Below are positions 1,383 through 61,003 of a stretch of 64,000 bases of DNA, piece after piece. Numbering within the stretch: the first letter of the stretch is position 1; every line of letters begins with the position of its first letter. The stretch comes from Malacoraja senta (Eukaryota). The position numbers and the translations under genes were made by a program. The stretch is from positions 10,108,001 through 10,172,000 of the forward strand of contig CM075994.1 of assembly GCA_038087875.1 (NCBI GenBank), given 5' to 3'. The notes beneath the pieces were generated by a model that did no database searches, was not told where the DNA came from, and was given only the letters and a program-made list of their open reading frames with translations.

Positions 1383-1862
1383 AGTGGGTAGGGTGGTGCT
1401 AATGTGCGGGCACCTCTGGTCGGCGCGGACTCGATGGGCCGAAGTGCCTGTTTCCGCGCAGTATCAGCCATGATCACAATGAATGGCGGTGCTGGCTCGA
1501 AGGGCCGAATGGCCTCCTCCTGCACCTATTTTCTATGTTTCTATCTCTCAACTGAACTGAACGATATCGTTGAACATTGCTACAGAATTCCGCTGATTAT
1601 CATTAAGAAACTAAGCGCCGAGTATATTGAATTTTTTTTTAAAGGCCCGTTTAAAACAAGATGAGGCAAGGAAGAACGTTAACTTTGCAATCTCTGCATA
1701 ATATGGGGCAGACGAGAAACTCATTTACGATAGACCATTTGGTTACCTTTACAAGTCAAGCAGTTTCTGGCTGCAAAGTATAATCTGTCCAGTTAGCGAC
1801 TAAAATTCTGCTGTTGATTTCAGATAAAGGAAAGATTGGGGGAGAGGAGAGAGGGTGGGTGG

Positions 1863-3778
1863 TCAGTCAACCTCGTAAATTGTTGGCCCACTGAAAGAGT
1901 CTCCTTTTCCAGCCTGCGCCCCAAAACCAGACGGCATGTCTGCCCGTTGCGGCCCGAAGATGATGGGGTGACAGATGTTTTCCAGGTCTCGCTGCTGGGT
2001 GTCCACGTCTTCTTTTCCCGCCTCCTGGTTCCACTCCAGCCAAGAGATGGCGGCGTTGCACGCTTCGAACACCTTCCTCTTGTCTTCCTCGTGGACCTTA
2101 CCCTTGGAGTTCTCGCCGTGCGCCGAGCCCTTCATTCGGAGGGCATAGCACGCCAGCGCGTTCTTGGCCGCGATCTTCTCCCGCAGCCGGCCGTCTTGGG
2201 CCCTGCTCCTCTCGCCGTCTTGGGCCAGCCTCTCCACCTCTCCCTGGCTCAGCCTCCCCTTGTCGCCGACGGTGGCAATGGCGCTGGCGCTCTGCTCCCG
2301 CCGGTCTTGTCCAGAGCCGACACGCTCAAGATGCCGTCGGCGTCGACCTCGAACGCGACTTGGAGCTGCGGCACTCCCCAGGGGGCAGCGGGAATCGGCC
2401 GGAGATCGAAATGGCCCAAGCGGTTGTTGTCCTGCCTCACGGGTCCCTCGCCTTCGTACACACAGATGGAGATTTCCGCTTGGTTGTCAGCCTGGGTGGT
2501 GAACACCAGCGTCTGTTTGGTGGGAATGGTGGTGTTCCGCTTGATCAGGGTGGTCATGGCACCGCCCGCCGCCTCCACACCCAAGGACAACGGAGTGACA
2601 TCTTGCAGAAGTAGATCCTGGACGTTCTCCGACTTGTCCCCCATCAGAATGGCCGCTTGGACAGCCGCCCCGTCGGCCACCGCCTCGTCGGGGTTGATGG
2701 TCTTGTTCAGCTCCTTGCCGTTGAAGAAATCTTGCAGCAGCTTCTGGATCTTGGGGATGCGGGTGGAGCCGCCGACCAGGACAATTTCATGGACCAGAGA
2801 CTTGTCCAACTTGGCATATCTCAGGGCTTTCTCCACCGGCTCCAGGGTGCCTCGGAGCAGGTCAGCGTTCAGTTCCTCAAAACGAGCCCTGGTGATTGAG
2901 GTGTAGAAGTCAATGCCCTCAAACAGAGAGTCGATCTCCACGTTGGCCTGGGTGATGGAAGACAAGGTTCTCTTCGCTGCCTCGCAGGCTGTCCGCAGCC
3001 TCCTCACCGCCCGCTTGTCCTGGCTGATGTCCTTCTTGTTTTTGCGTTTGAACTCCTCAATGAAGTGGCTGACCATGCGATTGTCAAAGTCCTCTCCACC
3101 CAGGTGGGTATCGCCGGTGGTGGACTTCACTTCAAAGATACCATCATCGATGGCGAGGATGGACACATCGAAGGTGCCGCCACCCAGGTCAAAGATGAGG
3201 ACATTGCGCTCTTCACTGCCCTTCTTGTCCAGGCCGTAGGCAATGGCAGCTGCAGTTGGTTCGTTGATGATGCGCAGGACATTGAGACCAGCGATCACGC
3301 CAGCATCTTTGGTTGCCTGCCGCTGGGAGTCATTGAAGTAAGCGGGCACGGTGATAACAGCGTTGGTGACATTGTAGCCCAGGTAAGCCTCGGCCACCTC
3401 CTTCATCTTGGTCAGCACCATGGAGGAGATCTCCTCCGGGTAGAAGGTTTTATTCTCCCCCTTGTACTCCACCTTCACCTTGGGCTTCCCAGCGTCGCCC
3501 ACCACCTGGAAGGGCCAGTGCTTCATGTCGGCCTGGACCACGGGGTCGTCGAACCTCCTCCCGATGAGCCTCTTGGCGTCGAAGACGGTGTTGGACGGGT
3601 TCATGGCCACCTGGTTCTTGGCCGCGTCGCCGATGAGCCTCTCGGTGTCGTTGAAGGCCACGTAGCTGGGGGTGGTGCGGTTGCCCTGGTCGTTGGTGAT
3701 GATCTCCACCTTGCCGTGCTCGAAGACGGCAACACAGGAGTAGGTGGTGCCCAGGTCGATGCCAATGGCTGTTGACAT
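1863..3778 (-). pseudogene. hsp70: Intronless cytosolic HSP70 (HSPA1/HSPA2-like) with a frameshift at ~2285-2305; probable pseudogene, or a gene with an assembly indel
   Basis: ORF 3778->2249 has [39 protein letters not shown] and [11 protein letters not shown]. After ...SALDKTG the HSP70 frame shifts (...[16 protein letters not shown]) and continues in ORF 2237->1863, ending GPTIYEVD*. No introns. Confidence 0.9.
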
Positions 3779-4244
3779 AGTTTTTTTTATTTTACTTCTT
3801 CCTTTCTCTTTCGCCGAGCAGGGGAGGTGCCGGTGTCCCAGAAGATCCCTCTCGCGTTGTCGCCCGTCCTCGCTGGCCGCTCACACTGAGCCTTCCAGCG
3901 CCATGCTAGGATTTTCCCGCCCGAATAGACGTCGCTGTGTCAATTGCAGCCGAGGTGTGACTTTCACCAGAACGTGGTGACTACACCGCAGCCAATGGAC
4001 GACGGCGCTACCTTGTTGCCATGCGAACCGGCGGGTAGCAACATTCCATGTCATAAAGGGCACCAATTTCTTGCAGGCGGAGCGGCGGGAAACAGGACGT
4101 CTGTTTCTCGGCAAATCCGCCTTTCCAATTGTGTAGGAAGGAACTGCAGATGTTGGTTGAAGTCGAAGATAGACCAAGAATGCTGGAGTTACTCAGCGGG
4201 ACAGGCAGCATCTCCGCAGAGAAGGAATGGGTGACGTTTCAGGT

Positions 4245-4878
4245 CTATTGTATGATGAAAGAATGGAGCGACTGGACCTGTATTCACTGGAATTTAGAAG
4301 GATGAGAGGGTATCGTATTAAACATATACAATTATTAAGGGATTGGACACGCTAGAGGCAGGAAACATGTTCCCGATGTTGGGGGAGTCCAGAACAGGGG
4401 CCACAGTTAATGAGTAAGGGGTAGACAAAAATGCTGGAGAAGCTCTGCGGGTGAGGCAGCATCAATGGAGCGAAGGAATAGGCTAAGTTTCGGGTCGACG
4501 CCCTTCTTCAGACTGGTGTGGGGGGGCGGGGGAAAAGGAAAGGAAGAGGCGGAGACAGTGGCTGTGGGAGAGCTGGGAAGGAGAGGGGAAGGAGGGAGAA
4601 ATCAAGGCTAGGCTATAACTGAGATGAGGCAGAACATTTTCACACAGAGAGTTGTGAATTTGTGGAATTCTCTGCCTCAGAAGACAGTGGAGGCCGAATC
4701 ACTGGATGTATTTAAAATAGAGTTACATGGAGCCCTTAGGGCTAGCGGAATCAAGGTGTATGGAGAGAAGGCAGGAACGGGGTACTGATTGCGGATGATC
4801 AGTCATGATTACATTGAATGGCGGTGCTGGCTCGAAGGGCCGAATGGCCTACTCCTGCACCTATTGTCTATGTATCTG
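4245..4878 (+). mobile_element. CR1 LINE 3' fragment interrupted by a Penelope terminal piece
   Basis: [22 protein letters not shown] tail and 3' UTR GGCCGAATGGCCTACTCCTGCACCTATT. Confidence 0.75.
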
Positions 4879-5518
4879 CGTTTCAAATTAGTCTCTTGAT
4901 CAGTCAGGGCGGCATGCGGTTGTGGGGAGAAGGCAGGATAATTGGGTTGAGAGGGGAACATAGATCAGCCATGGTTGAATGGCGGAGTAGACTTGATGGG
5001 CCGAATGGCGCAATTCTGCTCCTATCACTTATGAACTTATGAACTAACTCAGACACAAGTGCCGAAGTAAGTCAGTGGGCCAGGCAGCATCGCTGGTGAA
5101 AGAGGATGGGTGACGTTTTGGATCCGCACCCTTCTCCGGAGATGCTGCCCGACCCGCTGAGAGTCCTTTAATGTAAACCAGCACCTGCAGTTCTTTGAAG
5201 ATAGACACTAAACGCTGGAATGACACAGCGGGTCGGACACCCTTCTTCAGACTGGGAGACAGTGGAAAGGGGAACGAGAGATATTGGCGGTACTTCGGGC
5301 AAATTAATGGAAGATATTCAAAGAAAGGTGGAGCCCACAGCGGTGTATTGTTGGCTGTGGGTTTGGTGATAAAACGTTATACAGACGAGTGACACAGACA
5401 GTGTGGGTGATAACGAATTATACAGATAGTGGAGAGGTGATAACGAGTTATTTTCGACCGATCAGACAATTTACAACCTTTGCACGCGTTTTAGCATTTT
5501 GTTTATTTATTTATTTTT

Positions 5519-6040
5519 TACAATAGGTGCAGGAGTAGGGCGTTCGGCCCTTCGAGCCAGCAGCGCCATTCAATGTGAACATTGCTGATCATCCCCAATC
5601 AGTACCCCGTTCCTGCCTTCTCCCCATATCCCTGACTCCGCTATCTTTAAGAGCCCTATCTAGCTCTCTCTTGAAGGCATCCAGAGAACCTGCCTCCATC
5701 GTCCTCTGAGGCAGAGAATTCCACAGACTCACAACTCTCTGTGAGAAAAAGTGTTTCCTCGTCTCCGTTCTAAATGGCTTACCCCTTATTCTTATACTGT
5801 GGCCCCTGGTTCTGGACTCCCCCAACATCGGGAACATGTTTCCTGCCTCGAGTGTGTCCAAACCCTTAACAATCTTATATGTTTCAATAAGATGCCCACT
5901 CATCCTTCTAAACTCCAGAGTGTACAAGCCCAGCCGCTCCATTCTCTCAGCATATGACTGTCCCGCCATCCCGGGAATTAACCTTGTAAACCTACGCTAC
6001 ACTCCCTCAATAGCAAAAATGTTCTTCCTCAAATTAGGGG
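5519..6040 (-). mobile_element. CR1 LINE 3' fragment
   Basis: ORF 5969->5589 with [12 protein letters not shown]...RTRGHS...FFSQRVVSLWNSLP. Confidence 0.85.
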
Positions 6041-6284
6041 TATTATCTGGAACGATAAGTGATGGATCTTCAGAAGTCCAAGTCGCCTTATAAACAAATA
6101 ACACTATTAATGTACATATACTGACTAGATCTAGATCTAGATGTAGAAAGCTGAAAAGTTCTTGGTAGAGCATCACTCAGCACTGGTCAATTTTATACAA
6201 TTTTTACATTTATCAAACCAATTAACCTACAAACTGTACTAAACTATATTAAACAAACTGTACTAAACTGTATTAACAATCTAG

Positions 6285-6730
6285 AAACATTGACATAGAA
6301 ACATAGAAAATAGGTGCAGCAGGAGGCCATTCGGCCCTTCGAGCCAGCACCGCCATTCATTGTGATCAGGGCTGATCGTCCCTAATCAATAACCCGTGTC
6401 TGCCTTCTCCCCATATCCCTTGATTCCATTAGCCCCTAGAGCTCTATCTAACTCTCTCTTAAATCCATCCAGTGATTTGGCCTCCACTGCCCTCTGTGGC
6501 AGGGAATTCCACAAATTCACAACTCTCTGGGTGAAAACGTTTGTTCTCACCTCAGTTTAAAATGGCCTCCCCTTTATTTAAGACTGTGGCCCCTGGTTCT
6601 GGACTCGCCCAACATTGGGAACATTTTTCCTGCATCCAGCTTTTCCAGTCCTTTTATAATTTTATATGTTTCTGTAAGATACCCCCTCATCCTTCTAAAA
6701 CTCCAGTGAATACAAGCCGTCTTTTCAATC
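6285..6730 (-). mobile_element. CR1 LINE 3' fragment
   Basis: Reverse-complement CR1 tail with ACATAGAA-type terminal repeats. Confidence 0.75.
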
Positions 6731-7094
6731 TTGGCCTAGTCTTTTCAATCTTTATTAATGTTTGTGGGAGAAACCGAAGATCTCGGAGAAATCCCACGTA
6801 GATCACGGGGAGAACGTGCAAACTCCATACAGACAGCACCCATGGTCGGGATCGAACCCGGGTCTCTGACGCTACATTTTGCTGTAAAAGGCAGCAACTC
6901 CACCGCTGCGCCACCGTGACCGCCCAGTGTGTGAAGAGCTTGCACGGTTCTTTGTTTGTTTTGTATGCATGTTTTAATTAGAATAAAGTTTATTTTGTGG
7001 GAAACGGCAGCCAACTGAAGAGGGACTGGGCAGGTGGACACAAAATGCTGGAGTAACTCAGCGGCAGCATCTCTGGAGCGGGTCATCCTGATCT

Positions 7095-7705
7095 GAACCG
7101 ACCAATCACGCGGTCAATGGGCGGGCCATCGTGTTACGAATTGACCAATCAGGGGGGCGGACCATCGTGTTCTGGGCCGACCAATCACGTGTCAGGGGCG
7201 GGCCATATTGATGTGAATGGACCAATCACGCGGTCAGGGGGGGCGAGTCATTGTGATCTGATTCGACCAATGACGCGTCAGGGGGCGGGCAATGTGCGAT
7301 GAATGGGCCAATCCCACGGCAGGACGCGGGCCATAGTGCTATTAACGGACCAATCACGCGTCCGGGGGCGGGCCATAGTGCTATGAACGGACCAATCACG
7401 CGTCAGGGTGGGGCAATAGTGCGATCAATGGGCCAATCACACGTCAGAAGGCCCGCCATAGCGATATGAATAGACCAATCACGCGTGCAGTTGCGGGCCA
7501 TCGTGATCTGAGCCGACCAATCACATGGTCAGGGGGTGGGCCATCGTCATATGAATGGACCAATCAGGGGGGCGGGACGGTTTCATCTGGGCCGACCATT
7601 CACGCGCCAGGGGGCGGGCCATGATGATCTGGGCCGACCAATCACACGGGCAAGGGGCGGGCCATCCAGACAGGCCGATCAATCAGCCGTCAGGGGGCGG
7701 GCCGG
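7095..7705 (+). promoter_or_regulatory. Tandem array of 15 ~42-bp units, each with a CCAAT box and usually a GC box
   Basis: CCAAT at 7102, 7145, 7181, 7222, 7267, 7308, 7350, 7392, 7433, 7475, 7517, 7560, 7638, plus variants at 7596 and 7679. Consensus approx. GGACCAATCACGCGTCAGGGGGCGGGCCAT plus ~12 variable nt. The repeat is certain; regulatory function is inferred. Confidence 0.6.
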
Positions 7706-7748
7706 TGATGTCAGAGAGAACAAAGGATTTTGTGAATGGGGCTTTAAC

Positions 7749-7999
7749 CAAAGATCCTATAGAGAAGGTACACAAAAATGCTGGAGAAACTCAGCGGGTG
7801 CAGCAGCATCTATGGAGCGAAGGAAATAGGCAACGTTTCGGGCCGAAACCCTTCTTCAGACTGATAGGGGGTGGGGAGAAGAAAGGAACAAGGCGGAGGA
7901 GGAGCCCGAGGGCTGAGGGATGGGAGGAGACAACCAGAAGGCTGAGGAAGGGGAGGAGACAGCAAGGGCTAGCAAAACGAGCTTGATATAGGATCTTTG
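7749..7999. mobile_element. hAT-like MITE with 13-bp TIRs and 8-bp TSD, filled by a Penelope terminal fragment
   Basis: gctttaac|CAAAGATCCTATA ... TATAGGATCTTTG|gctttaac (TSDs 7741-7748 and 8000-8007). Confidence 0.75.
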
Positions 8000-8979
8000 G
8001 CTTTAACGAGTGAGCGCTCATGAGCGACGGCAGGTTAATTACTAAACACAGTGTTTGCACAACGCGTGGACCTCGACAAAAAATAAAAATAATGTAAAGT
8101 AAAGTAAATTTATTTATATAGCACTTTTCAATCAATTTCAATCAATGAAGCCAAAGTGCTTTACAGAGAAAATTATCAATATAAATGAGAAAAAAAAAGA
8201 GGTAGAAAAAAGACACGACACACTATTAGAGATTCAACACGAACAGCAGAGTCGGGGATTGAAATTTGAATAATGATTTAAAAAAATAAAAAATAAAAAA
8301 TAAATACAATTTAAAAAAAAGACTTTAAGAAAAAATAAATCAATAAACTGAATAAACAAAAATAAATAAATTAAAATCTCTCTTCATCACCGTCTATATC
8401 TGTCGTTTCCCTTTCTTCTGACTCTCAGTAAGAGGCAAAGATCCTAGGATCTTTGGTCTGAAGAAGGGTCTCGACCCGAAACGCCACCTGTTTTTCTCCA
8501 GAGATGCTGTCTGACCCGCTGAGTTACTCCAGCTTTTTGTGGCTTTCTACTGAAGACGCCAGGAATCGGTGGTGAAATTCACCAGCCTCTTCAGCGCGCT
8601 TTTACAACCTCTGGCCGTCTGAGGAGAGGACTGTTTGAAGCAAAGAGCTTCTTTGGTTTGCAGATAAGGACTTCAAAGCTGCACAAATCTCGCGGCTGGC
8701 CGTGCAGCGATGGTCGTTGCGTTCTTTTGCGTTCATGAGACACAGACCACCTCCTGGTGCGGGAAGCTCAAAGCACGAGAGAGAAGGCAGCGATAATCCA
8801 GAACCTCATCAATGAAGGCCCAGAGTACAACATCAGGAGATAGTCCCAAAAATGCTGCAGTAACTCAGCGGGACAGGCAGCATCTTTGGAGAGAAGGAAT
8901 GGGTGACGTTTCGGGTCGAGACCCTTCTTCAGACTGAGAGTCAGGGGAAAGGGAAGCGTTAGATATAGACGGTGATATA

Positions 8980-9883
8980 GGGAAGTTTCACGGTAGTCGG
9001 GTCACGACCCATGACCCGTACTGTTGCTACGCTACGCCAAATGGAGTACACGCGATGAACTGCAGGTAAGCACTGACCATTGTTTCCAGCGTAGCGGGCC
9101 CGTTAAAACCCGCCGAAATGGTCAATTTTTGCGCTGAAAATAATTATGGAAATCGGGATAAGCGTGAGAGACATTTAGCCTACTTCAGAATTCCAAAAGT
9201 GAGGAGAAATGACGGTAGATGGAAGCGAGCGAGAGCTGAAGGGACAACATCAGCCAAAGTGCTTGGCGAACATTGACCGTTTGCTCACTGCATTTCATCA
9301 ACTAAGGCATTATTTGTGTTTTTTCTTGATTCCTTTGGCATCTAAAAAGTTTCAGAAGTGATAAATCTGGCTGTAAAATTTTAAAATCGCCCATGGTTCT
9401 CAAGTGGGGTTTTTACATGCAAAATGAAAACGCCTCTGAAGCAAAATTTACAGCAAGATTTATCACTTCTGAGACTTTTTAGATACGAAAGGAATCAAGA
9501 AAAAACACAAATAATGCCTTACTGTTGATGAAATGCAGTGAGCAAACGCGATAAATCCCAATATTTACAATTCCGATATCTGCACGGCCAATGTTCGCCA
9601 AGCACTTTAGCTGCTGTTGTCCCTTCAGCTGTCGCTTCTCTTTACCTTCATTTCGCTTCACTTTTAGAATTCTGAAGTTGGGTACATGCCTCTCACACTT
9701 ACCCCGACTTCCACAATTTTTTTACGGAGCAAAAATTCAACATTTTGGCGGTTTTTAACAGGTAGGAAAGTACGCGTTTCTTGCATTAATAACATATACC
9801 GGAAGTTACGGATGTCCTCCAGATGGATTGAGCGGCTCCATGCGTCAAGCCCTATGACCCAGTGACCTTACGTGCAACCCACC
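8980..9883. mobile_element. ~900-bp foldback non-autonomous DNA element, superfamily unresolved
   Basis: Long internal inverted arms (~9090-9385 vs ~9440-9765), imperfect terminal IRs, TATA on both flanks. Confidence 0.6.
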
Positions 9884-10759
9884 TATATCACCGTCTATAT
9901 GTCTCGCTTCCCTTTCCCTGACTCTCAGTCTGAAGAAGGGTCTCGACCCGAAATGTCACCCATTCCTTCTCTCCAGAAATGCTGCCTGTACTCCATTATT
10001 TTGTTAGGGGGTCATATGAAATCCATTAAACAATACACGCAAACATAGATTGCCCCGAAGACTGCTGCATGAGAGACAGGTGCACTGTTGTGGAATAAAA
10101 TAAGAGCGGAGGGAGGTCTCCGTCCATCCTGACCCCGGGCTGTGAGCGGCGGGTTCCACTGCCCAACAGGTGCAACGCCTCCTCAGGTTGCACCCGAGAC
10201 TTCCTTAGCGCCGGGTCCCGTCCCTTTCTGTCCTGCCTTAGTCTTTCCCAAGCCCCTTGCTCAGCTTTCGTCTAATCGGCTCAGCTGATGTCTAACTGAC
10301 CATCTCCCTCTTGTGAAGGAAGACAAAAATGCTAGAGAAACTCAGCGGGGGAGGCAGCATCTATGGAGCGAAGGAATAGGTGACGTTTCGGGTCGAGACC
10401 CTTCTTCAGATCTCTGCCTAATCCCATTCTTCTGACCCGCTGAGTTACTTATGGACACACTGATCTGTTCTGTGTTCATGCCTACTATATTCTGTTGTGC
10501 TGAAGCAAAGTAAGAATTTCATTGTCCTATCTGGGACACATGACAATAAACTCTCTTGAATCTTGAATCTCTAAGATCTTTGGTTGGAAGTGGCCAGGAT
10601 ACCTTCACACTGAACACTTGCAGCCAAATAGCATTCATTGCCCGGGGCGGCAGCGTGAGCAGTGAGCACTCGCGGTACTGCAGGGGTTTCAGCAGCTCGA
10701 CGTGAATGAAAACATGTTGAACCAGGAAGCAAACTCTTTGAGTTTCTTCCGGAGTGAAA

Positions 10760-11170
10760 ATGGCTGCGAAACGCTCGGTCGCGAGTTGGACCGAGGAGGT
10801 AGTTTGTACCATCTGCCAGGATTTCTTCACCGATCCGGTGGCGCTGAACTGCGGGCACAACTACTGCCGCTCCTGTATCACACAGAGTTGGGACAGCGCG
10901 GGGAGAAACTCCTGCCCGGAATGTAGAGAGGAGTCTGCAGACCGCACCCTCAGGGTGAATCGGGCCTTGTTTAGACTGGCTGTTAAAGCTCGAGCACTGA
11001 GCCTGAATCTCAAAGCGAAGAAAAGTAAACTTCACTGCGAGAAACATCAGGAAGAACTGAAGCTGTTTTGTGAAACTGACAAGAAATTGATCTGTTTGAT
11101 TTGCACAACAGCGCGGGAACACAAGTCTCACAGTTTAATGCTGATAGAAGAAGCAATTGAATTCTACAAG
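10760..11170 (+). CDS. TRIM A exon 1 (RING + B-box2)
   Basis: ATG at 10760; donor TACAAG|gtaaaa at 11170. Confidence 0.9.
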
Positions 11171-20100: not shown

Positions 20101-22210
20101 TATCCTTGTATGAACATAAGGTTCCAAAGATCTTTCAGGGGCGGAAATCGCTGTAAAAACATGGGGGGTGGACACAATTTCTTGGTGGCCATGCGCGCAC
20201 ACACAAACTGTACGGTAACATCGGGAGCTGACCTGGTCAGTGACCGACTCCGAACTCCAGTAACAGCAGCTTCGTCCACCCCGAATCGTGGGGCTTGAAT
20301 CGGCACGTTCGTGCGGCCTTTCACCGCCCGGCGCGGCTTAAAATCGGCCGGTGGGGGCTTCAACATCGGGAGCCTCGATGCAGCAGATTGATTTTAAGCC
20401 GCGCCGGGCGATGAAAGGCCCCGCGAACGGGCCGATTCAGCCCATAGAAAGCGTCTGATACCCGCTTGAATTTTTCAAAAGCTACAATGTGATAAATAAC
20501 ACTTAAACAAATAAAACTGAAGCAAATAAAGGCAAACAGAAGAACCAACCTTGGAAGGGGAGAGAGAGAAAGAGATGGGAAAAACATACTAAATAACGTG
20601 AGTGACCGTGAATGAGGGACTTACCTGGAGCCAGCCAGGAAACCCGTTCGACCTGACTCATTTAAATCCGATACCCGTTTAAATCTTTCCCATCCACCAA
20701 TATATCCAATTAGTTCAAATGGTAATTGTACCCGCATCAGACAGCGTTAAGAAATTCTCCGTGAGTACCTTCAGTGATACTTGGTCAAAACACAATTGGT
20801 GACACATCATGTTAATACGATGTTAATAGAGACATTTAACAAGCGCTTAACAGTGACACCCCCACTGTCGCGGAAAGCAGAGATTTTAATAGTTTTTCTT
20901 TCGCCGAATTTCAAAATCCGGATTACAAAACATGAGGGGGATTGTCCCCCACCTCTCAAAACATGGGAGGGATGTAACCCCCCCCCCTCCCCCGCCACTC
21001 CCCCCAGGATAATGCTGCAGACCTTAATCTCCTTCCTCGCTATCCATAACATATCCCGTCCTCCGCAACTTACTAGTCACACCTCCAACATTAACATCCA
21101 AGCCATGAAAACATAAACTAAACAGCAACAGTGGCTGCACCGAACTCTGCTGCACACCACCCGCCACACAGCAGAACAATCATCCTTCCTTCTACCTCAA
21201 ACAACCAATCCTATTGTGGATCCAATTAAGCAGCTTGCTTGGATCCCACTTCGCTTTCTTGACCAGACTTACACCCGGAACTTTGGCAACTCCCTCGGTG
21301 AAGTTCTCCGTTGCAAAGAACCATCAAATCTACCCTCCTCTAAAGAAAGCAAGTAAACAGTAGCAGATTGCCTCGCCCGTCCAGTCCACTCCCGTTCAGT
21401 ATGATCACGGCAACTCCACCCCACATCTCTACATCCTCTTTAATCACCTCTAATTAACACTCACACCCATCCCCTCATCTTCCAATCTCCCTCTCCCTCA
21501 CCATCTTCTGGCAAGATATTTGAATACCATTTTTCTTCATCTACACTTTCTGCATCCGTTTTTCCCGTCCGCACGGACCATCTTCTCTCGTTCCCGATGA
21601 CCCGGTCCCGGGGCCGCGCTGCCCGAGTCTCCCCCCCGACCCCTGGGCACTCTCTGATTCTCTGCTTCTCCCCCCAGTCTCCGTCACCCTGGATGTGGAA
21701 ACGGCGCATCCGCTGCTCGAGGTGTCTGAGGATCGGAAGAGGGTGAGATGTACTGCGACACGGAGGAGTCTCCCTGACAGCGGGAAGAGGTTTACAGTGT
21801 ATGCATGTGTGCTAGGATCGGAGGGATTCACATCAGGGCGACATTACTGGGAGGTGGACGTGGCGGGGAGTCGGTGGTGGAGTCTGGGAGTCGCCATAGT
21901 GTCTGTGGAGAGGAAGAGAGGGATCACACTGACCCCGGAGACTGGAATCTGGAGCATCGAGCGGTGGGATGACGGGTTTGATGCACTCACCTCCCCTCCA
22001 TCCCCTCTCCCCACCCGTCCCATCCCCGGGAGGGTGGGAGTTTATCTCAGTTACGAGTCCGGGACAGTTTCATTTTACGACGCGGACACCAAGTCCCATC
22101 TCCACACCTTCACTGGGAATGAATTCACGGAGAAACTTTATCCTTACTTCGGGTCTTGGGATGAAAAGCAGTGGCTGAGAATCTGCTCCCGTTCCGCTCC
22201 GGGTGTGTAA
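10760..22210 (+). CDS. TRIM copy A: intact six-exon RING/B-box2/coiled-coil/B30.2 E3 ligase (TRIM39/TRIM27/nuclear factor 7-like), 471 aa
   Basis: Exons 10760-11170, 11262-11357, 15016-15249, 19125-19147, 19246-19364, 21678-22210 (411+96+234+23+119+533=1416 nt), all GT-AG and in frame. C3HC4 RING ([17 protein letters not shown]), B-box (CEKH..C..CLIC..HKSH), B30.2 motifs [21 protein letters not shown]. Confidence 0.9.
11262..11357 (+). CDS. TRIM A exon 2 (96 nt, coiled-coil)
   Basis: ccccag|GAACAG...GTTCAG|gtgagg; encodes [32 protein letters not shown]; same length in copies B and D. Confidence 0.85.
11955..12415 (-). mobile_element. Penelope-like element 3' fragment in TRIM A intron 2
   Basis: Same GIY-YIG tail and terminal sequence as the other Penelope copies. 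Confidence 0.8.
12583..14905 (+). mobile_element. Young 5'-truncated CR1 LINE (ORF2, RT) in TRIM A intron 2
   Basis: ORFs 12584-13264 and 13270-14832: [46 protein letters not shown]. Confidence 0.95.
15016..15249 (+). CDS. TRIM A exon 3 (234 nt, coiled-coil)
   Basis: gacag|GAAGAG...CTGAAG|gtgagg; open frame [21 protein letters not shown]...GVIFLK. Confidence 0.85.
15654..15904 (+). repeat. Inverted duplicate of an internal piece (~16928-17180) of the adjacent CR1
   Basis: Shares variants such as AACCAAGGTAAAATC, CCAATAGAGGTAGTCTAC and GAATGGCTG with the neighbour but not with the related CR1 at 28.4-30.3 kb. Confidence 0.8.
15918..18850 (-). mobile_element. Degraded CR1 LINE (endonuclease + RT) in TRIM A intron 3
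   Basis: Frameshifted ORF2 pieces 18161-17703, 17402-17154, 17041-16556, 16647-16060; absent from copy B intron 3. Confidence 0.92.
19125..19147 (+). CDS. TRIM A exon 4 (23-nt micro-exon)
   Basis: tttcag|GAGGAAGCTGGTCGCAAGAGGAG|gtagga; a matching 23-nt exon lies in copy B at 30523-30501. Confidence 0.8.
19246..19364 (+). CDS. TRIM A exon 5 (119 nt, linker)
   Basis: ttgcag|GGTTAATGAT...AACCGAG|gtaaaa; phases fit both neighbouring exons. Confidence 0.85.
21678..22210 (+). CDS. TRIM A exon 6 (B30.2/PRY-SPRY)
   Basis: ccccag|TCTCCGTCACCCTGGAT; ORF 21695-22210; AATAAA motifs downstream at ~22353 and ~22389. Confidence 0.9.
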
Positions 22211-22546: not shown

Positions 22547-25500
22547 TTAAGGTAGACAAAAATGCTGGAGAAACTCAGCGGGTGAGGCAGCATCTATGGA
22601 GCGAAGGAATTGGTGACGTTTTGGATCGAGACCCTTCTTCAGACTGATGGCGGAGGGGCGGTAAGAAGAAAGGAAGAGGCGGAGACAGTGGGCTGTGGGA
22701 GAGCTGGGAAGGGGAGGGGAAAGAGGGAGAAACCAAGGACTAACTGAATTGGAGAAGTCAATGTTTATACCGCTGGGGTGTAAACTACCCAAGCGAAATA
22801 TGAGGTGCTGCTCCTCCAATTTGTGGTGGGACTCACTCTGGCCATGCAGGAGGCCCAGGACAGAAAGGTCAAATTCGGAATGGGAGGGGGAGTTGAAATG
22901 CTGGGCCACCGGGAGATCAGGTTGGTTATTGCGGACTGAGCGGAGGTGTTGGGCGAAGAGATCGCCAAGCCTACCCTTGGTCTCACCGATGTAGAGCAGG
23001 CGACACCTAGAGCAGCAGATGCAATAGATGAGGTTGGAGGAGATGCAGATGAACCTCTGCCTCACCTGGAAAGACGGCTTGGGTCCTTGGATGGAGTCAA
23101 GGGTGGAGGTAAAGCGACAAGCATAGCATTTCCTGCGTTTGCAAGGGAAAGTACCAGGGGAGTGGGTGGTTTGGGTGGGAAGGGACGAATTGACCAGGGA
23201 GTTACGGAGGGAACGTTCCCTGTGGAAAGCTGACAGGGGAGGAGATGGGAAGATGAGGCCAGTGGTGGGATCCCGTTGCAGGTGGCGAAAATGTCGGAGG
23301 ATTATTTGTTGTATGTGACGGCTGGTAGGATGAAGATGAGGACAAGGGGGACTCTGCCCTTGTTACGAGTGGGGGGGTGGGCAGTGAGAGCAGAGTTTCG
23401 GGGGTATAGAAGAGATGTTGGTGAGAGCGTCATCTATAGTAGAGGAGGGGAACCCCCGTTCCCTAAAGAATGAGGATATATCCGATGCCCTGGTTTGGAA
23501 CACCTCAACCTGGAATCCTTACAGGAAGCAGGGTGGGAAGATGTGTAGTCCAGATAGCCATGGGAGTCAGTGGGTTTGTAGTAGATGTCGGTCAGTGGTC
23601 TGTTGCCTGCGATGGAGATAGTGAGGTCTAGCTATGGAAATGGTCCAGGTGAATTTGAATGCCGCATGGAAGTTCGTGGTGAAATGGATGAAGTCAGTGA
23701 GTTGTGTGTGGGTGCAGGAGGTAGCACCAATGCAGTCGTTGATGTAGCAGAAGTAGAGTTCGGGGATAGCACCATGGTACGCTTCGGACATGGAATGTTC
23801 GACATACCCTACAAAGAGGCAGGCATAGCTAGGGCCCATAGCGTGCCCAAAGCTACGCCTTGGATTTGGAGGAAATGGGAGGAGTCAAACGAAAAGTTGT
23901 TGAGGGTAAGGACCAGCTCCGCTAGGCAGAGGAGAGTATCAGTAGACGGGGATTGGTTGATTCTGTGGTCGAGGAAGAAACGGAGGGCTTTGAGAACTTC
24001 CTGGTGGGGGATGGAGGTGTAGAGTGACTGGACATCCATGGTGAAGATGAGGGAATGAGGGCCCGGAAAATAGAAGTCATGGAGGAGACGAAAAGCGTGT
24101 GAGGTGTGTTGGACATAGGTAGGGAGGGATTTAACCAGCGAGGATAGGATGGAGTCGAGGTACGTGGAAATTAATTCGGTGAGACATGAACAAGCAGAAA
24201 CAATGGGTCTGCCAGGACAGTCAGGTTTGTGGATTTTGGGGAGAAGGTAAAATCGGGCCATGTGGGGCTGGGGAACGGTGAGGTTGGAGGCTTGGGAGGG
24301 CTGGGAGCCGGAAGTGATGAAGCCAATGATAGTGTTAGAGATAGTGGCCTGGTGCTCGTCTGTGGGGTCATGGTCCAGGGATAAGTTGGCAGAGGTGCCT
24401 GAGAGTTGGCGACTGGCCTCAGCCTTGTAAAGATCAGTGAGCCAGACTACAACGGCACCTCCCTTGTCGGCAGGTTTGATCACCCAGTCGGGGTTGTTGC
24501 AGAGTGAATGGAGGGTTGTACGTTCAGGGGGGGAGAGGTTAGAGTGAGACGGGAGTGGAGAAGTTGAGGCAGTTGATGTCCCGCCGACAGTTTAAAATAT
24601 AAAGGTCAAGAGCCCGTAGATGGCCATGAGGGGGGTCCAAGAGGAGGGGGTCCGTTGGTGACGGGAGAAAGGGTCATCACTGGGGGGCGACGACTCCTTC
24701 CCATCGAAAAACGCTTGGAAGCGGAGGGGACGGAAGAAGAGCTCCACATCGTGGTGGGCGCGGAACTCATTGAGGTGGGGGCGGAGGGGAACAAAGGTGG
24801 GGCCTCTGCTGAGGACAGACCGTTCGGTATCCGAGAGGGGGAGGTCAGGGTATAGGGTGAACACACGGCAAGGATGGCGGTTGGGGCCGGAGGAAGGCAG
24901 GTGAATGGACGGAGGATGAGGCGATGTCTGGTAGGGGGGTAGTGGGTAGTCAGGGAGGAGGGGGTTATGGGGACTATATTGTGGGTGGGGAGAAGCTAGG
25001 GTCACATGGTACAAAGGGGAAGGGGAAGACCCAGTGGAACAACCACTGAGGTTCCCTGTGTTAGGTGGGGGGGCACTAGGACCCAGCACAGTCAGCCCCG
25101 TGGTGATAGGTGGGGGGCACTAGGACCCAGCACATTCGGCCCCCGTGGTGTTCGGCGACACTAAGACCCAGCACAGTCAGACCCCGTGGTGTTGCTGGTG
25201 GGGGGGGGGGGGGCACTAGGACCCAGCACAGTCAGACCCCGTGGTGTTAGGTGGGGTCACTAGGACCCAGCAGTCAGACCCACGGTGTTGGGGTGGTGGG
25301 AGGGGGAGGGACTAGGACCCAGCACAGTGAGACCCCGTTGAGCTGGGGGGTGGGGCGCACTAGGACCCAGCACATTCAGACACAAAGGTGTAAGGGGGGG
25401 CACTAGGACGCAGCACAGTCAGACCCCGTGGTGATAGGGGGGGGCACTAGGACCCAGCACAGTCGGACCCCGTGGTGATAGGCGGGGGGGGGGGGGGGGG

Positions 25501-26480
25501 GGGGGGGGTGCACTAGGACCCAGCACGTTCAGACTCAAAGGTGTAAGGGGGTGGCACTAGGACCCAGCACAGTCAGACCCCGTGGTGATAGGGGGGGCAC
25601 TAGGACCCAGCACAGTGACCCCACGGTGTTGGGGTGTTGGGGGTGGGGCACTAGGACCCAGCACATTCAGAAACAGGTGTAAGGGGAGGCACTAGGACCC
25701 AGCACAGTCAGACCCTGCGGTGTTGGAGGAGGGGGGGGCACTAGGACCCAGCACAGTCAGACCCCACGGTATTGGGGTGGTGGTTGGGGGGGGGCACTAG
25801 GACCCAGCACAGTCAGAACCCACGGAGTCGCAGGTGGAGACTTCAGTCCCGGTGCTGAGCCTGGGACCCGGGTAAGGCGACGGCAGCGGCCTGCTGGAGG
25901 GCGGTGGAGTGGCGAAGGTCGGTAAAGTCAATGGTGGAGGCCTGCGGGGTCAGCGGTCGAAGCATAGGAGGTCCCGGTCAGCGGAGTGCAGTGACGTGCA
26001 GTGAGGTCAGTGGCTGGGGAGGCACTGGCTAGTATCAGTGGCCCGGCCCCCCCTGTACTGATCACCGCGTCTCCCCGGGGAGAGAGAGTGGTGGACCCGG
26101 GGCTGCGTGCCTGAAGCACGGCGATTGGAGGGGCGGGAGCGTTGCCCTGGGACCGTGAGGGAACGATCCACCTCCCCCTCTCCCCCTTCTCCATTCCCCC
26201 TCACACCCCCCCTCCCCGTCTACCCCTTGCTTCCCCCTCCACCCGTCTGCTCTCTCTCTACCCCTCTCCGCCCTCTACCCGGGTGTAGATCTACCAGAGC
26301 CGAGAGTACATTACTCCAGCGCGGGGCTCCCAAATTGGGAGCTCTCAGCAGCCCAGAGCCTCCGAATCGGCCGCTACAAATCAACGAATCAACCTACCTA
26401 CCAGAGTCACCCGCGGCCGGAAAGTCAGCACCGCCAGCGGTGGAATCCAGTGCTGCGCCGCCGCTGCTGAAACTAGGTAA
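22547..26480 (-). mobile_element. Long degraded Penelope-like (Neptune-type) retroelement
   Basis: IKPADKGGAVVV, FYLLPKIHKPDCPGRPIVS, MDVQSLYTSIPH, MGPSYACLFVG, YINDCIG (RT) and NLIYCICCSRCRLLYIGETK (GIY-YIG), across several frameshifts. 5' boundary uncertain. Confidence 0.85.
25060..25825. repeat. G-rich minisatellite, ~16 units of ~40-55 bp, inside the Penelope 5' region
   Basis: Recurrent core GCACTAGGACCCAGCACAGTCAGACCCCGTGGTG followed by variable G-tracts. Confidence 0.9.
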
Positions 26481-35867: not shown

Positions 35868-38182
35868 ATGGCTTCGAAACACCAGGTCGAGAGTTTTTGC
35901 AGGGTTAGTGATGAATCCAAACCAATGTTGGTTGTAGATGGCGCGCTGCCCATTGAAAAGTATGATCGCACCTTTTTCTACAACGTGGCATTGAGAGAAA
36001 CATCTGATATCATCAACCGAGGTAAAACTAATACCTTTTGCATTTTTTTTTAAAGACATCTTTATGCAATACTTATATGTGAAGATTAATGTTATTAATG
36101 GACTCTGGGGAAAGTATCACAGAGGCAAAGAGCGAAGTTTGATTGCACTTGAATAAATCCTTGTTCCTGGGAGAATCGGTTTGCTGTGCTGGGTGAAATT
36201 GCGTAGACTGGGCTTGTGTGCACAAGAGTTCAGGTGTATTAGAGGAGATCTCAGTGAAACACAAAGTCCTTGCAGAGCTCAGTGGGCTGGATGCAGGGAG
36301 GATGTTTCCCCTGCCTGAGTGGTCTGGAGCCAGCGGACACACTCTCAGAATGTGGGCTGGACCATTCAGGACAGAGACAAGGAGACATGACTGCACGCAG
36401 AGACTGGGCAACCTTTGGAATTCCCTGCACTGGTGGCTGTGGATAATCAGTCATGCAATGCTCTTGGAGCCAGCGAGCCATGGCTGTACATTACAGAGTC
36501 AGGCCCTTCGGCCCATCGCGTCCATGTCCACCTTTTTTCCCAGCCACACAAATCCAATTTTGCCACATTAGATCCGTATTATTCTACACCTCGTTTGCTA
36601 AATCGCAATGCCTCTTAGATGTAGTGATTACATCTGATTCCACCACCTCCTCTGGCAAAATATTCCAGGTAATTACAACTCTTTGCGTGAAGAAAACTGC
36701 ATCCTCCAGTATTGATATCGCTGCATGACAATAAGGTTTTGATGATCCAGCCTATATCCTGCTGCAGACTTTGACAGACTTCCTTGGTATCCACAACATT
36801 ACCCGTTCCCCACAAACTTAGTAGTCACACCTCCTACATTCACATCCAAGCCATGAAAACATAAAATAAACAGCAAAGGTTGCAGCACCGATCCCTGCTG
36901 CACACCACCAGTCACAGTCCTCCAGGCAGAAAAATCATCCTTCTACCGCTACCTTCTACCTCCAACCACCAAGCCAATTGTAGGTCCATTTTACCAACTC
37001 GTGTTGGCTCCCACCTGCCTTCGCTTTCTGGACCAGCCTTACATGCAAAACATTGTCAAGTCCCCCAGTGAAGTTCATATATTGCTTCACAATGAGATCA
37101 GAATGTTCTTGGTTGTGCAGACGCATCAAACCCACCCTCCGCTATAGGTAGCAAGTAAACAGTAGCAGATTGCCTCGCCCGTCCAGTCCACTCCCGTTCA
37201 GTATGATCACGGCAACTCCACCCGGCATCTCTACATCCTCTTTAACTACCTCAAATTACCACTCACATCCGCATCCTCATCTTCCAATCTGCCTCTCCCT
37301 CGCCATCTACTGGCAAGATATTTAAATGCCCGCCTTATTTCTCCATCTCCACCCGCAATGTCTCGTTCATCCTCACTTTACGCATTCGTTTTCCCCGTCC
37401 GCACGCCTCGCCCCATCCCGTTCCCGATAACACGCAGAATTCCCCCTCTCCTGCCCGGTTGACAAACACCCGGAAAGATGTCTGCTGTCCATTCGGTGTG
37501 GTTGGTGTGAAACCCCGGGCAAGGTGTCAGTTATCCGCCCGCCTGTGCCTGAGGCCGAGCGGCTTCTCCCCCGGTCCCGGGGCCGCGCTGCCCGAGTCTC
37601 CCCCCCCCCCCAACACCGACCCCCGGGGACTGACTCTCTGATTCTCTGCTTCTCCCCCCAGTCTCCGTCACCCTGGATGTGGAAACAGCGCATCCGCTGC
37701 TCGAGGTGTCTGAGGATCGGAAGAGGGTGAGACGGACTGGGACCCGGAGGAGTCTCCCTGACACCGGGAAGAGGTTTACATACTGGGAGTGTGTGCTGGG
37801 ATCGGAGGGATTCACATCGGGGAGACATTACTGGGAGGTGGTGGTGGCGGGGAGTTGGTACTGGTGTCTGGGAGTCGCCGCAGTGTCTGTGGAGAGGAAA
37901 GGAGAGGACGAGCTGACCCCGGAGACTGGAGTCTGGAGCATCTGGCGGTGCAGTGACAAGTTTGATGCACTCCCCTCCCCTCTCCCCGCCCGTCCCATCC
38001 CCGGGAGGATGGGAGTTTATCTCAGTTACGAGTCCGGGACAGTTTCATTTTACGATGCGGACACCAAGACCCATCTCCACACCTTCACTGGGAATAAATT
38101 CATGGAGAAACTTTATCCTTTCTTCGAGACTTATGAAGACCAGTGGCTGAGAATCTGCTCCGGTTCCGCTCCGGGTGTGTAA
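35868..38182 (+). CDS. TRIM copy C: two-exon B30.2-only derivative lacking RING, B-box and coiled-coil (predicted 224 aa); could alternatively be a pseudogene
   Basis: Exon 35868-36021 is the first ~29 nt of exon 1 fused in frame to the intron-4 end and exon 5 ([28 protein letters not shown]...DIINR|gtaaaa). Exon 37662-38182 is an open B30.2 frame ending GV*. Confidence 0.65.
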
Positions 38183-43017: not shown

Positions 43018-46000
43018 GTTTTTTTTATTTTGTTTTATTTATTTTTTATTTTTGTATTAATTTTTTTATTTATTAGAAGTACATTACATTACAACCACAT
43101 GCATTAGTACTCGTCACTTATGTCTTCTTACAATTAATGTACTCCATTTATTTTTTACACTAGAAAAGGAAAAGATTGAAAGAAAGAAGAAAGTGAAGGA
43201 AAAAGTGAGAGTGTAGAAAATGTGACAACAAAAAAGGACGAAGACCCTATAAGAACAAAATTAAAAACAAAAGAAAAAGAGTTAAGAAATAGACCCTAGA
43301 AAAGAAAGAGAAAGAGAAAGAGGAAAAGGAGAGAAACAAATATTTTTATGAGCATTACGCAAATGGGACATACCTCTTCAACTATCATCCCCCCTTACCT
43401 GACCTCAATTTTTTTTTTAAAGGTACCTTTGCACCCTATGTTTGTAATAATTCTATAAATGCAGACCACGACAGGTGGAAGTGATCTGGTTTACCTGCTA
43501 GGAGGAGTCTTATCTCTTCTAGGTGTAATGTTTCGAACATATTTGAAATCCACATGTTTATAGTTGGTATTGGAGCCTTCTACCAAAATTTTAGAATTAG
43601 CTTTTTTCCAGTTATTAACCCATAGTCTATTAGTTTCTTTTGAAACACATTTAGTTCTGGACCATCTTCCGTTATTCCGAAGATAATCCATTCTGCTTTG
43701 GGTATCAGTCTTATTTTAAATAACTTTGTAAAGATTTCAAAAATTTCATTAACATTTTTTTGAATTTTTGTACAGAAAACGAATGAGTGCGCCATAGTAG
43801 CTTCTTGGGATTGACATTTATCACAAATAGATGATACATTTGGGAAAATTTTATGAATTTTAGTTTTCGAATAATATAATCCATGTAAAATTTTAAATTG
43901 TATTAAAGTGTGTCTTACATTAATCGAATATTTATGCACGTTTAATAAGTGTTCATTCCAACTTTCCTTTGAAATTTTAATAGCTAACTCTTGTTCCCAG
44001 TCTCTTCTGATACCGTAGATGGTATTTGTACATTTAAGATAATATTATACAAATATGATATTAAGTTTGCTGATTCAGCTTTTATCTGCATTGCCTCATC
44101 CAATACATCTACTGGGTTATTATAATGATCTTTTGTATATTTATTCAAAGAGTCGCATATTTGAAAATATTTAAAATATTGATTATTTCCGAGTTTATAT
44201 TTTATTTGTAATTGTTGAAATGAAAGTAATTTTCCAGTTTCATACAAGTCACCGAGCGTTTTAATTCCTAGTCTATCCCAATGTGTAAAAGCTTTATCTA
44301 TAATAGAGGGATTAAACGAAGGGTTATTAACTATAGGTAATAAAAGTGATAAATTTCTTAATTTTAAATTTTGTTTTATTTGTTTCCAAATTCGGATTGT
44401 ACTATGAATAATTGGGTTCTTATTATAATTTATATTATTCAATTTCATTGGAGAGAGGAGGATCGCTCCAATGTTTCCAGAGGAGCAATCCTCTTTCTCC
44501 ATTACAATCCAGTCCACTTGCTGGGCGGAGTTATCCATCAGTTGAATCATATTTTTAATATTTACTGACCAATAATAATACATAAAATCAGGTAGTGCTA
44601 AACCCCCTAATACTTTAGGTTTATTCAGATGAGTTTTTTGTATTCTATGTGATTTATAGTCCCATATAAAATTAGTGATATCTGAGTCGAGTTTTTTAAA
44701 AAACTTCTTGGGTAAGTATATAGGAATCGATTGAAATAGGTATAAAATTTGTGGTAGAAAGATCATTTTTATTGCATTTATTCGGCCTATTAAAGACATC
44801 GGGAGCGTTTTCCAGAATTTAATTAGTGTGTTTAATTTATTAAGTAGGGGATCAAAATTTGCCTTAAACATACCTTGATATGTTCTGGTAATTTCGATTC
44901 CCAAGTATTTAAATTTTTCTGTAGCTATTTTAAAAGGGAATTTTAAAAGATGTGTTGAATCTTTCCGTTTTATTGACATAATTTCACTTTTATTCCAATT
45001 TATTCTATATCCAGAAAAAGATCCAAAGTCTTCAATTAAATTTAATATATTTGGTATAGTGATTTGAGGTTTTGTAATGTACATTAATATATCATCCGCG
45101 TATAAAGATATTTTATTATATGAGTCTTTAGTATTATATCCATGGATATCAGGGTGTATTCTAATTTTTTCTGCTAGCGGTTCAATAATGAGAGCAAACA
45201 GCTGTGGTGATAATGAGCATCCTTGTCTATTTCCCCTTGATAGTTGGAATTTCGAGGATAATATGTTATTAGTTAGTATTCTAGCTGTAGGTTTGTTATA
45301 TAGTAACTTGATCCATAGAATAAAATTCTCTCCCAGTTGGAATTTTTGTAATACTTTATCCATATAATTCCATTCTACTTGATCAAATGCTTTTTCAGCA
45401 TCCAGCGAAATAATTGATAATTCTTGATCTTCAGATTTGTGTGAGTGCATTATGTTGAGTAGACGTCTCATATTGTTAGATGAGTATCTCTTAGGGATAA
45501 ACCCCGTCTGATCTGGGTTTATTAATTTACTAATGTATTTACTTAATCTTCTAGCTAATGTTTTCGCTAATATTTTTTGATCTGTGTTTAACAATGCTAT
45601 AGCTCTATATGAACCCGGTTCTTCTAAATCTTTGTTTTTCTTAGGTATTAGTGTAATCGTTGATTCCGCTAATGTATCAGGTAGTATTCGTTTTTTTAAA
45701 GCATATTGGTACATTTTTTGTAATCTTGGTATTATTTTATCATAAAAGCTTTTATAAAATTCATTAGTAAATCCACCAGGGCTTGGTGTTTTTCCATTCT
45801 TTAGTGAGTTTATTGCATCTTCTAATTCCTTAATTGAGATTTGTGCACCCAATTCCTCTTGTTCCTTCAGCTCTAACTTTGGAAGATTACAATTATCCAA
45901 AAACTTTGTGATATTATTGGAATCAATTGTCGTTTAAGATGTATACAAATTCTCATAAAATTGCGCAAATCTTTTATTAATATCCTTCGGTGTTGTTAAT

Positions 46001-59526: not shown

Positions 59527-61003
59527 GCCACTGACACCCTCCTCCGCCTAGCGGAGCTGGTACTTACACTTAATAACTTTTCATTTGACTCCTCCCATTT
59601 CCTCCAAATACAAGGCATAGCTATGGGCACACGCATGGGCCCCAGCTACGCCTGCCTCTTTGTCGTGTACGTAGAACAATCCTTGTTCAATGCGTACCAG
59701 GGCCCCATCCCCGACCTCTACCTCCGCTGCATCGATGATTGTTTTGGTGCCACATCCTGCACCCACACACAACTGACTGACTTCATCCGCTTCACCACCA
59801 ACTTCCATCCGGCACTCAAATACACCTGGACCATTTCCGACACTTTCCTACCATTCCTTGACCTCACTATCTCCATCGCAGGTGATAGACTCCTTACCGA
59901 CATCCACTACAAACCTACCGACTCCCATGGCTATCTGGACTACACTTCTTCCCATCCTGCTTCCTATAAGGACTCCATCCCCCACTCCCAATTCCTCCGT
60001 CTACGCCGCATCTGCTCCCAGGATGAGGCGTTCCACACCAGGGCATCTGAAATGTCCTCATTCTTCAGGGAACGGGGGTTCCCCTCCTCCACCATAGATG
60101 AGGCTCGCACCAGGGTCTCTGCCACACCCCGCAACACTGCTCTCTCTCCCCATCCCCCCCACTCACAACAAAGGCAGAGTCCCCCTAGTCCTCACCTTTC
60201 ACCCCACCAGCCGTCACATACAACAAGTGATCCTCCGTCAGTTTTGCCACCTCCAACGTGACCCCACCACTCGCCACATCTTCCCATCTCCCCCCATGTC
60301 TGCCTTCCGCAAAGGCCGCTCCCTCCGTAACTCCCTTGTCAATTCTTCCCTTCCCTCCCATACCACCCCCTCCCCTGGTACTTTCCCTTGCAACCGCAAG
60401 AGATGCAACACTTGTCCCTTCACCTCCCCCCTCCACTCCATTCAAGGACCCAAGCAGTCGTTCCAGGTGCGACAGAGGTTCACCTGCATCTCCTCCAACC
60501 TCATCTATTGCATTCGCTGCTCTAGATGCCAGCTGATCTACATCGGTGAGACCAAGCGGAGGCTTGGCGATCGTTTCGCCGAACACCTCCGGTCGGTCCG
60601 CAATAACCAACCTGAACTCCCGGTGGCTCAGCACTTCAACTCCCCCTCCCATTCCGTATCTGACCTCTCTGTCCTGGGTCTCCTCCATGGCCACAGCGAG
60701 CAACACCGTAAATTGGAGGAAATGCACCTCATATTCCGCTTGGGCAGTCTACATCCTGGGGGCCTCAACATTGAATTCTCCCAATTCTACTAGCCCTTGC
60801 TGTCCCCTCCCCTTCATCAGCCATCTGGTTGTCTCCTCCCCTCCCCCAGCCCTCGGGCTCCTCCTCCGCCTTTGTCCTTTTTTCCTTTCTTCTCCCCACC
60901 CCCTATCAATCTGAAGAAGGGTTTCGGCCCGAAACGTTACCTATTTCCTTCGCTCCATAGATGCTGCTGCACCCGCTGAGTTTCTCCAGCATTTTTGTGT
61001 ACC
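59527..61003 (+). mobile_element. 5'-truncated Penelope-like element (RT C-half + GIY-YIG) nested in a CR1
   Basis: QIQGIAMGTRMGPSYA, CIDDCFG, PCNRKRCNTCPF, NLIYCIRCSRCQLIYIGETKRRLGDRFAEH; CR1 resumes at ATTGAATATAGAAG (~61003). Confidence 0.9.
60905..60945 (+). ncRNA. Putative minimal hammerhead ribozyme in the Penelope 3' terminus (representative copy)
   Basis: CTGAAGA-A-GGGT(TTCG)GCCC-GAAAC-GTT, sense to the element and downstream of the GIY-YIG stop. Confidence 0.6.

Follow-up and report, generated by a model that had tools for sequence, protein, structure and literature searches.

The HSP70 and TRIM neighbourhood

The window, by which we mean the whole 64,000-nucleotide stretch of DNA analysed here, contains an HSP70 gene and a TRIM gene (TRIM A), and a tandem array of CCAAT-bearing units lies between them (Table 1). 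As the original prediction had placed it, the array stands 3300 bp from the ATG of the minus-strand HSP70 and 3045 bp from that of the plus-strand TRIM A.

Table 1. Coordinates of the array, its borders and the neighbouring features in the window
Feature	Position	Strand	Evidence or remark
Weak candidate partner end, TTAA then 11/16 matches to the right end (7728-7743)	1639..1658	+	probably chance
Intronless HSP70, elasmobranch paralogue, diverged C-terminus ending GPTIYEVD	1866..3778	-	Pfam, protein comparison
HSP70 own upstream elements	3880..4130	-	GC box 3922; inverted CCAAT 3996, 4067, 4129; X-box-like half site 4023
Short Penelope-like remnant (tail of a high-copy repeat) lying directly against the array's left end, which it truncates	7029..7080	-	self-comparison, contigs
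Tandem array of 15 diverged units	7078..7703	+	TRF, unit alignment, unit tree
40-bp tail with TGATGTCA and AACAAAG, ending ...GGGGCT; candidate DNA-transposon terminal repeat	7704..7743		depth in organism B
TTAA just beyond the candidate end, possibly the target site (TAA/TTA for a Harbinger-type element)	7744..7747		sequence; inference
Later insertion, 13-bp terminal inverted repeats starting CA, exact 8-bp target duplication	7749..7999		sequence
DNA adjoining the tail before the hAT-like insertion	8008..8092		single-copy depth in organism B
Proximal block common to TRIM A and TRIM B	10021..10247	+	86% to 48713-48942
TRIM A first coding exon, RING and B-box	10760..11170	+	Pfam

The proteins closest to the C-terminal part of HSP70 were from skate (77%) and from shark and manta ray (59% each), three matches among 448 candidates, which places the window in an elasmobranch, probably a skate. 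The gene matched the skate protein over its full length in two frames, with a break near 2297-2315 that the original prediction had missed. This frameshift could indicate either a pseudogene or an assembly error. Among the upstream elements, we take the half site at 4023 to be RFX X-box-like. No perfect GAAnnTTC, TTCnnGAA or TATA was found at 3880-4130, and the motif set hints at non-heat-induced expression, for example in testis.

The block that TRIM A shares with TRIM B is non-coding, about 230 bp long, and located about 510-740 bp ahead of each ATG. In both TRIM paralogues it likely represents the promoter or a first exon. No CCAAT cluster was found in the 11 kb upstream of TRIM B. Three PRY-SPRY exons (21524-22210, 37634-38182 and about 55000-55480) were seen versus two RING/B-box exons, and the third follows a 200-N gap.

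Sequence repeated elsewhere in the window makes up 67% of the interval from HSP70 to the array. The corresponding value on the TRIM side was 30%, in addition to a 1-kb foldback element. In this large nested foldback (8900-9962), several inverted arms are arranged around a centre at about 9410, with lengths of 45-92 bp and 80-94% complementarity. Three sub-threshold matches to Rfam microRNA models fell on it at 9276-9548, and the element is likely a MITE. A second tandem array at 25058-25825, in a TRIM interval, consists of units of about 44 bp with a fixed core and variable G-runs, and is unrelated to the CCAAT array. Further downstream, a 649-aa reverse-transcriptase frame on the minus strand (43984-45933) occupies an AT-rich element (about 29% GC) that is presumably L1/Tx1-like.

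Structure and motif content of the array

The 15 units and 14 spacings first described were reproduced exactly. The units start at 7102, 7145, 7181, 7222, 7267, 7308, 7350, 7392, 7433, 7475, 7517, 7560, 7596, 7638 and 7679, with CCAAT spacings of 43, 36, 41, 45, 41, 42, 42, 41, 42, 42, 43, 36, 42 and 41 bp; thirteen units are 41-45 bp long and two are 36 bp. TRF detected a period of 42 at 7078-7566 (11.7 copies, 71% matches, score 364) and a second stretch at 7585-7665. The mean identity over all 105 unit pairs was 71%, and identity by unit offset, which varied between 0.67 and 0.74, gave no clear strict dimer or 10-unit higher-order period. In the unit tree, two spacer types split with a support of 0.89, and both short units fell within one group. 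Self-BLAST of the window revealed a single copy of the array, the best stray unit match being 18/29. The array had no match in the Rfam search of 3700-11000, and a 143-aa frame overlapping it (7555-7986), which runs through an insertion, had no Pfam match.

The units are laid out as CCAATCA, a CACGCG-like core, a GC box and one of the two spacer types. The core is missing from both short units, in which the GC box starts 10 bp past CCAAT instead of 15-17 bp. Exact CCAAT was present in 13/15 units, on the plus strand in every case, and [AG]CCAATCA in 11/15, compared with 12 occurrences on the plus strand of the whole window. The original prediction held that CCAATCA and the GC box were both kept. 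This was true of CCAATCA, but the GC box was weaker, with GGGCGG in 9/15 units and GGGGCGGG in only 7/15. GGGCGG is the Sp/KLF site, and NF-Y and Sp/KLF sites together make TATA-less promoters. CCAATCA is the NF-Y site according to the accessible part of PMC11853044.

The array is far beyond chance, since none of 100 shuffles contained any match to the two-unit pattern CCAATCAC-GC box-CCAATCA, which matched three times in the window, always inside the array. The densest 610 bp of CCAAT/ATTGG held 13 motifs in the array versus a maximum of 6 elsewhere in the window. The reported high CpG content was confirmed (o/e = 0.95) but is not distinctive, because 12/128 500-bp windows of the stretch have an o/e of at least 0.9 with GC above 0.5. 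CpG decay, looked at as a methylation signal, showed no clear difference (11/112 versus 13/253, p=0.11).

Helical phasing of the array, which had been proposed on the basis of the unit length, was not supported. Nine of the 14 spacings are 41-42 bp. However, the phase coherence along the array was R=0.30 at 10.5 bp/turn (0.23-0.49 over 10.2-10.6), and the two 36-bp units move the helical register by about half a turn. Moreover, among all unit lengths between 20 and 80, 25% deviate by no more than 1 bp from an integral number of turns and would qualify anyway.

A neutral minisatellite or satellite might also produce such an array. Its units would never have been regulatory, the founding unit would have happened to carry the motifs, and tandem expansion would account for the high depth in a close relative (see below). 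Among the units, 4/105 cells deviated from the majority within CCAATCA, versus 103/419 outside the two motifs, and the GC-box CpG showed one transition in 29 cells, which argues against neutrality. We simulated neutral evolution on the unit tree (1500 runs per rate model) and compared the best 7-column stretch with CCAATCA. With uniform rates, a stretch as conserved as CCAATCA appeared in only 0.5% of runs. Under 4-fold CpG mutation it appeared in 8% (p=0.08, look-elsewhere corrected), a result more favourable to a satellite. CCAATCA at its fixed position was matched in 0-1% of simulations under either rate model, and GGGCGG at its fixed place gave p 0.04-0.06. When the best pair of stretches was compared with both motifs, p was 0.02 with uniform rates and 0.35 with CpG hypermutability (500 runs each). 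CCAATCA was thus better kept than the rest of the unit and was probably retained beyond neutral expectation (p 0.005-0.08), whereas retention of the GC box was weak.

Borders, related copies and divergence between species

The original prediction gave no flanking repeats, but repeat insertions border the array on both sides. The left junction between the Penelope-like remnant and the array was also found in organism B, a close relative of the window's species (organism A). On the right, the 251-bp insertion after the tail is enclosed by an exact 8-bp duplication (7741-7748 / 8000-8007), and by its hallmarks we take it to be a non-autonomous, hAT-like element. It contains a piece of Penelope-like tail (7767-7972) that is 92.5% to 60790-61003, a segment standing after a GIY-YIG-like frame. 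A second remnant, at 8436-8455, consists of these two termini joined head to head and sits within a Penelope-like tail.

The intact duplication implied that 8008 adjoined 7748 before the insertion, which deleted nothing. Because 8008 is single-copy in organism B, the block shared with other copies ends near 7745. This end is placed within about 20 bp; depth arithmetic put it near 7742, and the local sequence reads ...GGGGCT followed by TTAA, although CTTTAA occurs 19 times in the window. No TATA or AATAAA was found at 7703-8081.

Our search for other copies listed nine sequencing runs. The share of words matched was 0.95 in one organism A run, 0.05 in six organism B runs and none in two other organism A runs; four of the six organism B runs were small (101-186 million letters). 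Contigs of four of the nine runs, X1, X6, X8 and X9, were aligned to 6930-8130 at 80% likeness, X6 being the one from organism B. Summed contig depth does not equal copy number, and was used only as evidence of many related sequences. In X8 the array depth was 0-17. No RNA run appeared among the nine, and the X9 contigs gave no cover over the array; neither result says anything on expression.

In run X1 of organism A, an exact contig spanned 7089-7459 at a depth of 24.6, the locus depth being about 25. A separate 467-letter contig with a depth of 31.4 aligned to 7528-7631, where it differed at 15 of 104 letters. Two depth values, 31.4 and 27.8, recurred inside the array and also at 7705. We read these matching figures, which are at the single-copy level, as suggesting two further loci with units and tail in organism A.

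In run X6 of organism B, 12 contigs carried A at 7599 and 11 carried A at 7170. Relative to single-copy sequence, the summed depth was 0-55x over the units, 178x at 7668-7708 and 612x at 7709-7749, so that the tail is the most highly repeated part. In absolute terms it reached 8198 at 7705 and 13078 at 7715, while single-copy pieces stood at about 14-18. Depth was single-copy at 7003, 8008 and 8034 (14.1 at the latter two). Four pieces had single-copy depth, namely 6930-7062, 7063-7206, 7560-7664 and 7978-8092. Of these, the first two join up over the left junction, which indicates an orthologue in organism B and an insertion older than the species split.

The array and tail are therefore a member of a multi-copy sequence with related copies elsewhere in both species, as divergent contigs in organism A and the 11-12 contigs at single sites in organism B reveal. 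It is highly probable that the array originated in a mobile or repeat family with many copies. Segmental duplication of the TRIM cluster was considered as a source of the copies and rejected, as both flanks of the array are single-copy in organism B. Pattern scans of viral contigs (three patterns), metagenome contigs and prokaryote genomes found no array. The literature search found no description of the element; Repbase, Dfam and most subscription journals lay outside this search, so the family may already be catalogued.

The depth profile bears on the satellite in two ways. The tail depth of 3.6x in organism A contrasts with 612x in organism B, and large depth differences between relatives are typical of satellites. 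In contrast, the highest depth falls on the non-repeated tail and not on the units. A satellite could also explain why the array diverged at or above the flank rate and lost motifs in both lineages, as described next, but on balance we regard it as an unlikely source.

For the comparison of the window with the organism B orthologue, we used two array pieces and two flank pieces, one of the array pieces including 15 letters of repeat remnant. The array pieces differed at 22/249 sites and the flank pieces at 13/248 (p=0.16). Nine of the 22 array differences are listed, and three of these fall within motifs, to which 37% of those sites belong. In organism B, unit 2 has lost both CCAAT and the GC box. 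In the window, unit 13 has lost CCAAT, which organism B retains. The contigs of X1 also read A at 7599, the CCAAT site of unit 13, so this change may be allelic or may reflect a sequence error in the window. Overall, in this small sample the array locus changed no slower than its flanks between the species, and no constraint on the motifs was visible. Together with the comparison among units, this pattern would fit selection on the motifs while the array of a parent element diversified, with none visible since this copy became fixed.

These results also bear on the suggestion that the array, whatever its origin, is now a selected enhancer for HSP70 and/or TRIM. Thirteen intact CCAAT and nine GGGCGG motifs lie no more than about 3 kb from either gene start, both species retain the locus, and LTR12 arrays act over distance, as the accessible part of PMC11853044 describes. 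However, conservation between the species shows no excess, unit 2 lost both motifs in organism B, and helical phase is not maintained along the array. HSP70 is frameshifted, TRIM B shares the proximal block but lacks an array, and two-thirds of the HSP70-array interval is repeated sequence. We therefore find a host enhancer unlikely, contrary to the original prediction, and nothing shows that HSP70 or TRIM depends on the array.

Nature of the probable carrier element

The array could instead be a cut-short piece of a retroelement, either an LTR's U3 enhancer or, in another class, the 5' monomer region. The copies in contigs are compatible with this, and the TGATGTCA site follows the last GC box as it would in a proximal promoter. 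LTRs end in TG...CA with a target duplication of 4-6 bp. Here, the left end is truncated and the right boundary reads approximately CT then TTAA, so that TG...CA was not found. The shared block stops about 40 bp past the last unit, without R-U5, TATA or polyA signal; the DNA beyond the tail is single-copy in organism B, and the hAT-like insertion, judging from its intact duplication, deleted nothing. No gag/pol/env-like frame stands beside the array in the ORF list, and the three patterns were unmatched in viral contigs. A retroelement promoter specifically, as the original prediction had offered, is thus improbable, but its wider form, the promoter of an unrecognised mobile element, fits the multi-copy contig evidence.

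The design nevertheless matches the LTR12/ERV9 U3 of primates, in which the accessible part of PMC11853044 describes 5-17 tandem units of about 41 nt with subtypes and a best-kept CCAAT on a dispersed mobile carrier. The two differ in that the array has a GC box and a CACGCG-like core where that account gives GATA and MZF1 (PMC11853044). No TATA-like box, R or U5 follows the array, its end is CT before TTAA, and its host is a cartilaginous fish. The resemblance is limited to design, and no sequence relationship is expected.

We favour a DNA transposon, with a probability of roughly 55%. The array and tail would be the surviving end of an interspersed, TTAA- or TAA-targeting cut-and-paste transposon of skates with a subterminal, inward promoter, now truncated and drifting. 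Judged from the end sequence, the class is most likely of the Kolobok or PIF/Harbinger type. The right terminus at 7742-7743 reads AG on the minus strand, which corresponds to the RR of Kolobok given an approximate boundary, and TTAA stands at 7744-7747, without a convincing left end. Kolobok elements have RR/AG ends and TTAA targets, and a Kolobok-type MITE of Xenopus carries an amplified internal repeat, according to the portion of PMC6004289 that was available. This element, T2-MITE (Xmix, with the internal repeat Xstir), resembles the present one in its AG terminus with TTAA outside and in a tandem repeat that rides in a DNA transposon and was amplified in particular lineages (PMC6004289, same portion). 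Unlike T2-MITE, our locus shows one end only, the candidate terminus reads AGCCC and not AGGRR, no transposase is present, and the description in that portion includes no NF-Y/Sp array (PMC6004289).

Several observations weigh against a transposon. No paired terminal inverted repeats were found near the array within 3 mismatches of 20 or 2 of 13, nor any partner end or target duplication adjoining it, and the left part appears lost. The ORF list of the window contained no transposase, 13 frames being scanned against Pfam.

For a PIF/Harbinger element, repeated subterminal sites could serve a Myb-like binder. In that superfamily, a Myb-like protein has been proposed to bind the DNA, and the TAA-type target would be compatible with our locus on one side, as far as the accessible text of PMC2836001 goes. 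Unlike in PIF/Harbinger, no paired ends or 3-bp duplication were found at the locus, and its best-kept motif is CCAATCA and not the palindromic core.

A larger element, extending over 1643-7743 between two TTAA sites, might have captured and moved an HSP70 copy that then decayed. The site at 1639, 6 kb away, is the only plus-strand TTAAAG left of the array, and its 11/16 matches have a binomial p of 0.002-0.005 for one site. In all, 7/494 TTAA-AG pairs reach 11 matches; five of them score 14-16, and we take these to be copies of one repeat. HSP70 is frameshifted, and some real Kolobok ends are similarly imperfect (PMC6004289 Table 5, in its accessible part). However, the match was found after the fact, shows no similarity past 16 bases, and lies within a T-run (1631-1658) at the 3' end of HSP70. 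The HSP70 gene itself is an old host paralogue, intact in skate, shark and manta ray. Such a capture is very unlikely.

If the favoured transposon is correct, the array in the parent element would have been a subterminal, TATA-less promoter/enhancer, with NF-Y on each CCAAT and Sp/KLF on the adjacent GC box. The bound factors would keep the DNA open and drive transcription inward, leftward here, into the transposase gene. Unit number might have grown by slippage or unequal exchange, giving the two spacer types and the short type. The local copy would then have lost its left part at the Penelope-like junction, received the hAT-like insertion at its right edge, and drifted. This copy may nonetheless retain NF-Y/Sp1 binding.

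Short arrays dispersed by non-autonomous elements are also known from the tandem-repeat-carrying MITEs and Helentrons of molluscs. The hosts differ, and the available parts of PMC3879986 and PMC7492417 note no promoter-motif content. By analogy, the array would be a tandem promoter-motif array on a mobile element, a kind already known, and any activity it has would resemble that of the LTR12 U3 repeats. At present, it is an unclassified repeat remnant with unusual motif content, mainly useful for repeat annotation. A bolder proposal, which we hold only tentatively and think improbable, is that a skate cut-and-paste transposon independently evolved an LTR12-like NF-Y/Sp multimer at its end. In one lineage it would then have dispersed to hundreds of sites as a ready-made, active promoter or enhancer, one of these sites being inside an immune TRIM/HSP70 cluster. 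If this is true, an LTR12-like NF-Y/Sp repeat module arose on a different mobile-element class in cartilaginous fishes, and the contrast in abundance between two close species would make it possible to test directly whether arrays of this kind rewire expression.
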